Below, one piece after another: positions 9,055 through 36,570 of a stretch of 64,000 nt of DNA. Under the pieces are notes generated by a model. It was not told where the DNA came from and ran no database searches. It was given only the letters and a program-made list of their open reading frames with translations. Numbering within the stretch: position 1 is the first letter of the stretch; every line of letters begins with the position of its first letter. The position numbers were made by a program, and so were the translations under genes. The DNA comes from Escherichia coli O157:H7 (lineage in GTDB: Bacteria > Pseudomonadota > Gammaproteobacteria > Enterobacterales > Enterobacteriaceae): the NCBI RefSeq assembly GCF_013167455.1, contig NZ_CP038328.1; one strand, 5' to 3'.

Positions 9055-9654
9055 CTAAACGGCAGGCGTCGCAATAATGGTTTTTACATGTGCCAGCGCG
9101 TTTTCCAGTGGCTCGGAATTGCGCGAAATTTTGGCCTGCAGATTCGCACCCAGCCATAGTGCGTAAAGCACTTGTGCCTGTTGCAGCGGTTCGCCACAAA
9201 AGGTTAAACAATGGCTATCACGGCCATTTTCCAGAGCCTGCGAGAGCAGGGCGATCACGCCGCGAGCGCCTTTATCCATCGCGCTACGCATATCTTCTGA
9301 CAGATCGCACACTTCGGCAGAGAGTTTTACTGTCAGGCAACCACTGATGGTTCCATGTTGGCAAAACTGGTTCAGTGTTTGCTGGTAATAAGCCAGTATG
9401 CGGTCGCGGTAGTTACCTTCGCCGGATTGCAGCAACTCAGTCAGTCGTTGGTGATATGTGGCGTAATGGCGCTCAAGCATGGCAACGCCAAACGCTTCTT
9501 TAGAGCGAAAGTAGTGATAGAAGGACCCTTTCGGCACTTCAGCGGTTTTTAGTAATTCGCTTAGCCCCATCCCGGTGAATCCACGTTGCAGGCAAAGTTG
9601 CTCGCCCGTCGCCAGGAGATGTTCGCGAGTATCATGTTCGGTGTGTTTGTTCAT
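9055..9654 (-). CDS. nemR: TetR-family repressor NemR, 199 aa
   Basis: ORF track 199 aa; N-terminal TetR HTH; immediately upstream of nemA and gloA on the same strand. Confidence 0.9.
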   Translation of the reverse strand: MNKHTEHDTREHLLATGEQLCLQRGFTGMGLSELLKTAEVPKGSFYHYFRSKEAFGVAMLERHYATYHQRLTELLQSGEGNYRDRILAYYQQTLNQFCQHGTISGCLTVKLSAEVCDLSEDMRSAMDKGARGVIALLSQALENGRDSHCLTFCGEPLQQAQVLYALWLGANLQAKISRNSEPLENALAHVKTIIATPAV

Positions 9655-9668
9655 GCGTTGGAGTGTAG

Positions 9669-9684
9669 TAGACCAGTCGGTCTA
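9669..9684. promoter_or_regulatory. NemR operator (NemR box) in nemR promoter
   Basis: Palindrome TAGACC-AGTC-GGTCTA 15 bp upstream of nemR start; matches recalled NemR box. A second 6-N4-6 palindrome CAAAGT-TGCT-ACTTTG lies at 9692-9707. Confidence 0.6.
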
Positions 9685-9756
9685 GTGCAAGCAAAGTTGC
9701 TACTTTGGGCATTAACAGCTTCAATAATGGTAATAATCTTATTTGAGGAGGGCGAA

Positions 9757-9996
9757 GTGGCGGAGCAATTAGAGTTCTTTCCCGTCCAGAGCCCGTGCCG
9801 GGGAATTTGCCAGTCTGACGAACGCGGGTTTTGTCGCGGCTGTTTTCGAAGCCGGGATGAGCGTTTTAACTGGAATAAAATGAGCGATGGCGAAAAACAA
9901 GAGGTGCTGCGCCTTTGTCGGCAGCGATTAATGCGCAAATTACGTGCAAATAAGCCAGCGTCATCAGACGAACCGGAGCAACCATCACTCTTTTGA
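9757..9996 (+). CDS. ydhL: DUF1289 small Cys-rich protein YdhL, 79 aa (GTG start)
   Basis: GTG at 9757 preceded by GAGGAG (9745-9750); translation VAEQLEFFPVQSPCRGICQSDERGFCRGCFRSRDERFNW... The ORF-track call from 9586 is an upstream in-frame extension lacking an SD. Confidence 0.75.
   Translation: MAEQLEFFPVQSPCRGICQSDERGFCRGCFRSRDERFNWNKMSDGEKQEVLRLCRQRLMRKLRANKPASSDEPEQPSLF

Positions 9997-26534: not shown

Positions 26535-29423
<2,889 letters not shown>

Positions 29424-34826: not shown

Positions 34827-36570
<1,744 letters not shown>

Follow-up and report, generated by a model that had tools for sequence, protein, structure and literature searches.

The 102-bp spacer between the divergent genes nemR and ydhL of Escherichia coli O157:H7 (positions 9655-9756 of the window, the whole 64,000-nucleotide stretch of DNA analysed here) carries two adjacent palindromes that share the same 6-N4-6 geometry. 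The first, Pal1 (TAGACC-AGTC-GGTCTA, 9669-9684), is the known nemR operator, which is conserved across Enterobacterales. The second, Pal2 (CAAAGT-TGCT-ACTTTG, 9692-9707), is probably a fortuitous dyad specific to the Escherichia lineage, which lies over the likely -35 element of ydhL, where two promoters stand back to back, and which does not itself act as an operator. Since Pal1 was already known and Pal2 is not NemR-like, the finding is largely ordinary. Our analysis confirms the nemRA-gloA operator and places Pal1 precisely in an apparently leaderless promoter conserved across Enterobacterales, and it indicates that shared geometry is not a sufficient reason to list Pal2 as a NemR site in regulatory databases.

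The arrangement that best accounts for these observations would consist of two back-to-back divergent promoters of the sigma-70 type. A NemR dimer bound to Pal1, within the spacer of the nemR promoter, would block RNA polymerase, a mode of action suggested by the position of the site. Pal2 would take no part in the NemR switch, and the TTGCTA at its centre would serve as the -35 element of ydhL.

The spacer and its two palindromes

On one side, the spacer is bounded by nemR (9055-9654, minus strand), which encodes a TetR-family repressor of 199 aa, as judged from its open reading frame and the RefSeq product name 'DNA-binding transcriptional regulator NemR'. Precomputed Pfam domains (PF00440 and PF16925) were found on NemR homologues, and nemA is the next gene after nemR on the minus strand. 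On the other side lies ydhL (9757-9996, plus strand), which encodes a DUF1289 protein of 79 aa from a GTG start at 9757 and is preceded by a Shine-Dalgarno sequence, GAGGAGGG, at 9745-9752 on the plus strand. Both gene names agree in the RefSeq annotation of identical O157:H7 genomes and of MG1655. The initial annotation had taken this DNA for the divergent control region of nemR and ydhL, and the gene positions and annotation agree with that description.

The nemRA-gloA operon is a well-studied defence system against electrophiles, methylglyoxal and bleach. Electrophiles and bleach inactivate NemR, thereby relieving repression. YdhL is a small Cys-rich protein whose overexpression confers resistance to H2O2 and HOCl. 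In the RutR ChIP-chip table used below, nemR appears under its older name, ydhM (PMC2475637).

Both palindromes were found where the initial annotation had located them, and each is a perfect 6-N4-6 dyad. Pal2 starts 8 nt after the end of Pal1, leaving a gap of 7 bases (GTGCAAG), and the two centres are 23 bp apart. The window contains 26 perfect 6-N4-6 palindromes, compared to 16-19 expected, and Pal1 and Pal2 form the sole adjacent pair of this kind. Given one real site, the probability that a second 6-N4-6 palindrome starts within 40 nt on either side is about 0.03, a value that rises to about 0.35 when any spacer from 0 to 10 is allowed. First-order Markov simulations produced such a pair in 16% of windows, overlapping pairs counted. 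The adjacency of Pal1 and Pal2 is mildly unusual, and the statistics alone are not compelling.

Pal1 and the nemR promoter

The proposal that Pal1 is the NemR box is borne out by its conservation upstream of nemR orthologues, by the presence of the same 16-mer in the RutR table, and by a mutation selected in honey that maps inside the palindrome. We take Pal1 to be the NemR box, or nemR operator, of E. coli, reportedly described by Umezawa et al. in 2008 (J Bacteriol 190:5890).

Conservation was assessed in 80 loci encoding NemR relatives, together with the loci of Salmonella enterica, S. bongori and Citrobacter koseri and one metagenome contig. Just upstream of nemR, the motif TAGACCnnnnGGTCTA is present with 0-2 mismatches in 42 loci, whose range extends from Escherichia to Yersinia and Serratia, and in about 30 Enterobacterales loci the Pal1-type box stops 13-15 nt short of the ATG. 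We built a symmetrised scoring matrix from the 42 orthologous NemR boxes and used it to score all 16-mers of the window. Pal1, which has 0 mismatches to TAGACC-N4-GGTCTA, ranked first with +26 bits.

Four methylglyoxal-honey-resistant isolates that evolved independently carry a G>A substitution located 19 nt from nemR and 84 nt from ydhL (PMC8127710 Table S2). This substitution is the sole spacer change in the table and is shared by all four isolates that have a spacer change (PMC8127710). It corresponds to position 9673 of the window, inside Pal1, where it converts GGTCTA to GATCTA. Derepression of nemRA-gloA by a Pal1 mutation has been measured for a glyoxal mutant; for the honey isolates, we infer the same effect from the selection. 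Loss of nemR also raises resistance under methylglyoxal-rich honey. Pal1 agrees with the NemR box of E. coli in sequence and in its location within the nemR promoter, and it is the target of derepressing mutations, whereas Pal2 is dissimilar in sequence, sits upstream of the core promoter and is not found together with nemR beyond Escherichia.

Pal1 is also a predicted binding site for RutR. For ydhM, the RutR ChIP-chip table gives the predicted site TAGACCGACTGGTCTA, whose centre is 22.5 bp upstream of the start of the gene (PMC2475637); this sequence is the Pal1 16-mer as read on the nemR strand. Pal1 agrees with the RutR consensus, TTGACCAnnTGGTCAA, at 11 of 14 positions and lies under the RutR ChIP-chip peak at ydhM (PMC2475637), which indicates that the spacer is bound by two proteins of the TetR family. 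The initial annotation had offered, as one way to explain two palindromes, a second regulator acting on the nemRA-gloA or ydhL promoters. This idea holds insofar as RutR was found at the spacer in vivo, but the predicted RutR site is Pal1 and not Pal2: NemR and RutR use one and the same palindrome, and Pal2 is not RutR-like.

SMRT-Cappable-seq places the start of the operons b1649-b1650 and b1649-b1650-b1651-b1652 at position 1726022 of MG1655, forward strand (PMC6131387, supplementary file 4), and the transcripts from this position are nemR-nemA and nemR-nemA-gloA-rnt (PMC6131387). In MG1655, nemR begins at 1726023. The published start is thus 1 nt before the ATG, at 9655 on the minus strand of the window, which sets Pal1 at -29 to -14. 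Counted from this start, the -10 element is TACACT (9662-9667, minus strand; -12 to -7), whose TAnnnT is conserved in the alignments, and the -35 element is TTGCAC (9685-9690, minus strand; -35 to -30), 17 nt from the -10. Promoter assignments in this work are based on conservation and on the published nemR start. In an alignment of 20 Enterobacteriaceae loci with ydhL next door, the TTGCA of the nemR -35 is invariant, and Pal1 is flanked by this TTGCA on one side and by TAnnnT on the other. The 17-nt promoter spacer is made up of the Pal1 box and one additional base. Hence, Pal1 overlaps the core nemR promoter, and Pal2, at -52 to -37, is outside it.

Because the nemR -10 ends 7 nt before the ATG, transcription was predicted to start at or beside the ATG, in line with the mapped position. 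Furthermore, no Shine-Dalgarno sequence is visible before the ATG of nemR, and the nemRA-gloA message appears to be leaderless or to have a leader of 1 nt. A generic promoter scan of 9500-9900 reported no promoter, as both divergent promoters have weak hexamers.

The nemR -35 element varies among natural isolates. The substitution 9686 T>C turns TTGCAC into TTGCGC on the nemR strand; it occurs in 92 of the 5425 complete E. coli genomes searched and might alter basal expression of nemRA-gloA. A second substitution, 9690 A>G, was found in 2 genomes among 118 placed variants.

The putative ydhL promoter and the variation of Pal2

The TTGC at the centre of Pal2 does not vary among the 20 aligned Enterobacteriaceae or the three loci from Salmonella and C. 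koseri, and 17 nt always separate its hexamer from TTCAAT. Between TTGC and the CTTCAAT block (9719-9725, plus strand), the bases vary freely on the ydhL strand. The block itself, which includes TTCAAT at 9720-9725 and reads ATTGAAG on the nemR strand, is invariant. TTGCTA-N17-TTCAAT would most simply be explained as the -35 and -10 elements of ydhL, with the putative -35, TTGCTA, at 9697-9702 on the plus strand as indicated by its conservation. Transcription of ydhL would then start near 9732 and give rise to a 25-nt leader in which GAGGAGGG would act as the ribosome-binding site. TTCAAT is a weak match to a -10 element because the usual A is missing at the second position, and the generic scan missed this putative promoter because TTCAAT fails its -10 rule. 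ydhL (b1648) is not among the rows read of the SMRT-Cappable-seq operon tables, and the Cappable-seq supplement contains no coordinates from the spacer region.

In E. albertii, an insertion of about 120 nt separates CTTCAAT from the start of ydhL (locus L002, about 1790-1915). We take this insertion to be ERIC/IRU-like from its resemblance to the ERIC consensus, and its location downstream of CTTCAAT is consistent with a transcribed ydhL leader. We also observed that CTTCAAT is invariant in more than 20 Enterobacteriaceae despite being a poor -10; it could be part of a conserved protein-binding site instead, or in addition.

With these assignments, Pal2 covers about -40 to -25 of the predicted ydhL promoter. 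Its left arm would lie within the 6 bp separating the two -35 hexamers, with one base reaching into the ydhL -35, and its right arm would fall in the spacer of the ydhL promoter, except for its first base, which would be the last base of the ydhL -35. Divergent sigma-70 promoters placed back to back, with their -35 elements on opposite strands and 6 bp apart (9685-9690 and 9697-9702), generate local dyad symmetry, and the hexamers facing away from each other already supply part of the symmetry seen at Pal2. In Enterobacter sp. BIGb0383, the back-to-back -35 elements form a 6-N4-6 palindrome by themselves (TGCAAG-CCAA-CTTGCA). In E. coli, however, the dyad extends past the hexamers into positions that are not conserved, and the arrangement alone does not require it to do so.

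Among the aligned loci, only E. coli and E. albertii have the perfect Pal2 dyad. The E. coli sequences of O157, MG1655, five further complete genomes and the divergent locus L001 share one 16-mer with E. albertii (CAAAGT-AGCA-ACTTTG on the nemR strand, with 6 of 6 arm pairs). On the same strand, the corresponding sequence is CACAAT-AGCA-ACTCTG in S. bongori (4 of 6 arm pairs), CATTAT-GGCA-ACTCTG in Salmonella enterica (3 of 6), ATTTCT-CGCA-AGCGCT in C. werkmanii (3 of 6) and CTTTCT-GGCA-ACCTGA in Citrobacter koseri (1 of 6). The remaining genera diverge further at this position, and the distance to the nemR -35 changes as well. The arms of Pal2 would thus have become complementary in the Escherichia lineage only. 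From a Salmonella-like sequence, about 3 substitutions lead to the perfect Pal2, all of them towards symmetry. This is suggestive evidence against a fortuitous Pal2, but the observation was picked after the fact.

We then considered variation among 5425 complete E. coli genomes. The exact 32-mer at 9676-9707 was found in 5221 of them, and 203 genomes matched it with one mismatch. The mismatch was placed in 118 of these (92 at 9686, 24 at 9693 and 2 at 9690). The substitution 9693 A>G, in the left arm of Pal2, occurs in 24 genomes, and 9692 C>T, at the first base of Pal2, in at least 1; both break the dyad, and these counts are lower bounds since about 85 genomes with a single mismatch remain unplaced. 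In two variant genomes, strains QML220601 and GF4-3, the opposite arm is unchanged, without compensation. Overall, at least about 96% of the 5425 E. coli genomes, and E. albertii as well, carry Pal2 without any change, and positions 9708-9710, just outside Pal2, are polymorphic among the few sequences that were fully read. Under neutrality, the chance of no change in 16 nt was estimated at roughly 0.1-0.2. Pal2 is somewhat quieter than its flank, which could reflect constraint, but divergence within the genus is too low for this to carry weight.

Taken together, a likely ydhL -35 at the centre, arms that are complementary in Escherichia only, and the symmetry inherent to back-to-back promoters suggest that the perfect Pal2 is most likely fortuitous.

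Other readings of Pal2 and minor observations

An unlikely alternative is that Pal2 is the operator of a different dimeric regulator, which arose or was recruited in the Escherichia lineage. When bound, such a protein would cover the ydhL -35 and repress ydhL, and with the centre of Pal2 at -44.5 of nemR, an effect on nemRA-gloA is also conceivable. A position over a promoter -35 is classical for a repressor, and perfect 16-bp dyads of this geometry are typical of sites bound by helix-turn-helix dimers. Beyond Escherichia, however, the gene arrangement and the promoter blocks are conserved but the dyad is not. The stability of Pal2 in most E. coli and in E. albertii, while adjacent bases vary, speaks for a bound protein, but the natural variants described above break the dyad and leave the other arm as it was in the two genomes concerned. 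Motifs related to Pal2 are not enriched in the window (21 found compared to 31.5 expected), and our literature search found no regulator or binding data for Pal2. We know of no E. coli regulator consensus that Pal2 matches.

Stress control of ydhL would make sense given the oxidant resistance conferred by its overexpression. We also consider it quite unlikely that Pal2 is an operator of recent, Escherichia-specific origin that, by virtue of its location at the ydhL -35 and at -44.5 of nemR, links YdhL expression to the response against electrophiles and bleach. Protein binding at Pal2, if it occurs, would provide the first lead on the regulation of ydhL, a gene of unknown function, and would represent a modest, lineage-restricted addition.

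Two further groups of candidates near Pal2 were discarded. A Fur-like AT-rich stretch at 9723-9741 has 6 mismatches out of 19, and 20 equally good sites exist in the window, as expected from chance. Sigma-E, sigma-54 and marbox readings near Pal2 were judged by eye against the respective consensus sequences, and none fits or is conserved in Citrobacter and Salmonella.

The initial annotation had named cooperative binding of NemR to tandem operators as the other way to explain the shared architecture. In this scheme, Pal2 would be a second, low-affinity NemR operator cooperating with Pal1 in the manner of tetO1 and tetO2, which we regard as very improbable. The two palindromes do have the same 6-N4-6 geometry, and the 23 bp between their centres puts them on roughly the same face of the helix. 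Their likeness ends with geometry: Pal2 differs from the NemR box at 8 of the 12 specified positions, when 16-mers of the window average 9.0, and scores -29 bits compared to +26 for Pal1, a score equalled or exceeded by 11% of window 16-mers. The half-sites have 2 of 6 bases in common, and the near-invariant GACC core is missing from Pal2. Furthermore, Pal2 is absent from Salmonella, Citrobacter, Enterobacter and every other genus with a NemR box, including those with the same nemR-ydhL arrangement, and no second NemR-like box was found in the 70 nt upstream in any of the 42 orthologous loci, where the best candidate had 4 of 12 mismatches. One genomic SELEX summary table gives 2 NemR sites, without their locations, but a later paper from the same group describes NemR as a single-target regulator by genomic SELEX (PMC5934670). 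Finally, the recurrent change under methylglyoxal-rich honey is a single base of Pal1, which also argues against a second operator.

Two known divergent regions illustrate what a duplicated operator looks like. The divergent tetR-tetA region of Tn10 contains the tandem operators tetO1 and tetO2. As in the nemR-ydhL spacer, these are two palindromes of the same architecture located between divergent genes that include one for a TetR-family repressor; however, tetO1 and tetO2 are nearly identical and both bind TetR, whereas Pal1 and Pal2 have only their geometry in common. The second example, the malI-malX divergent region, lies within the same window and also holds two palindromes. Here, GATAAAACGTTTTATC (36470-36485) and GGTAAAACGTTTTATC (36548-36563) are two copies of one palindrome, 78 bp apart, and are presumably the known MalI operators. 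Both copies have the same sequence, as expected of a duplicated operator, while Pal1 and Pal2 differ in sequence.

It is scarcely credible that the palindromes act as RNA hairpins in a transcript crossing the spacer, for example from the sigma-54 site inside nemR: although there is a correctly oriented sigma-54 ChIP site (motif CTGGTTCAGTGTTTGCT) upstream and the minimum-energy fold allows each palindrome a 6-bp stem, the fold of the spacer is not significantly more stable than those of shuffled sequences (z = -1.45), the Pal2 stem is missing from the centroid and is neither conserved nor supported by covariation, and an Rfam search gave no match at E <= 1. Given the mapped nemR start and the predicted ydhL start, neither palindrome would be transcribed from the genes' own promoters.

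The sigma-54 site just mentioned is site IA14 of Bonocora et al. 2015 (PMC4591121), located at 9367-9383 on the plus strand, inside nemR and antisense to it. It points to ydhL, about 360 bp away, and if active, it would direct transcription through both palindromes.

We also noted a 16-nt direct repeat that links the spacer to nemR. One copy, TGCAGGCAAAGTTGCT (9587-9602), covers codons 18-23 of nemR, including Cys21, and its partner, TGCAAGCAAAGTTGCT (9686-9701), overlaps the nemR -35 as well as the left part of Pal2. The copies are 99 bp apart and identical at 15 of 16 positions, and the pair is one of only two isolated repeats of such quality in the 64-kb window. In strain Z1323PEC0008, the 9690 A>G substitution makes the two copies identical at 16 of 16 positions. 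In E. coli FDAARGOS_1258, a deletion of 99 bp falls exactly between the repeat copies; it takes out the 5' end of nemR together with the nemR promoter and the NemR box, and the annotation of this strain lists nemR as a pseudogene. This strain is the only genome with the deletion among 5426. Elsewhere in the window, a run of direct repeats with a 96-bp period extends from about 26580 to 27115. This run looks like a tandem repeat, probably inside a gene, and yields duplicated NemR-like near-matches at 27004 and 27100.
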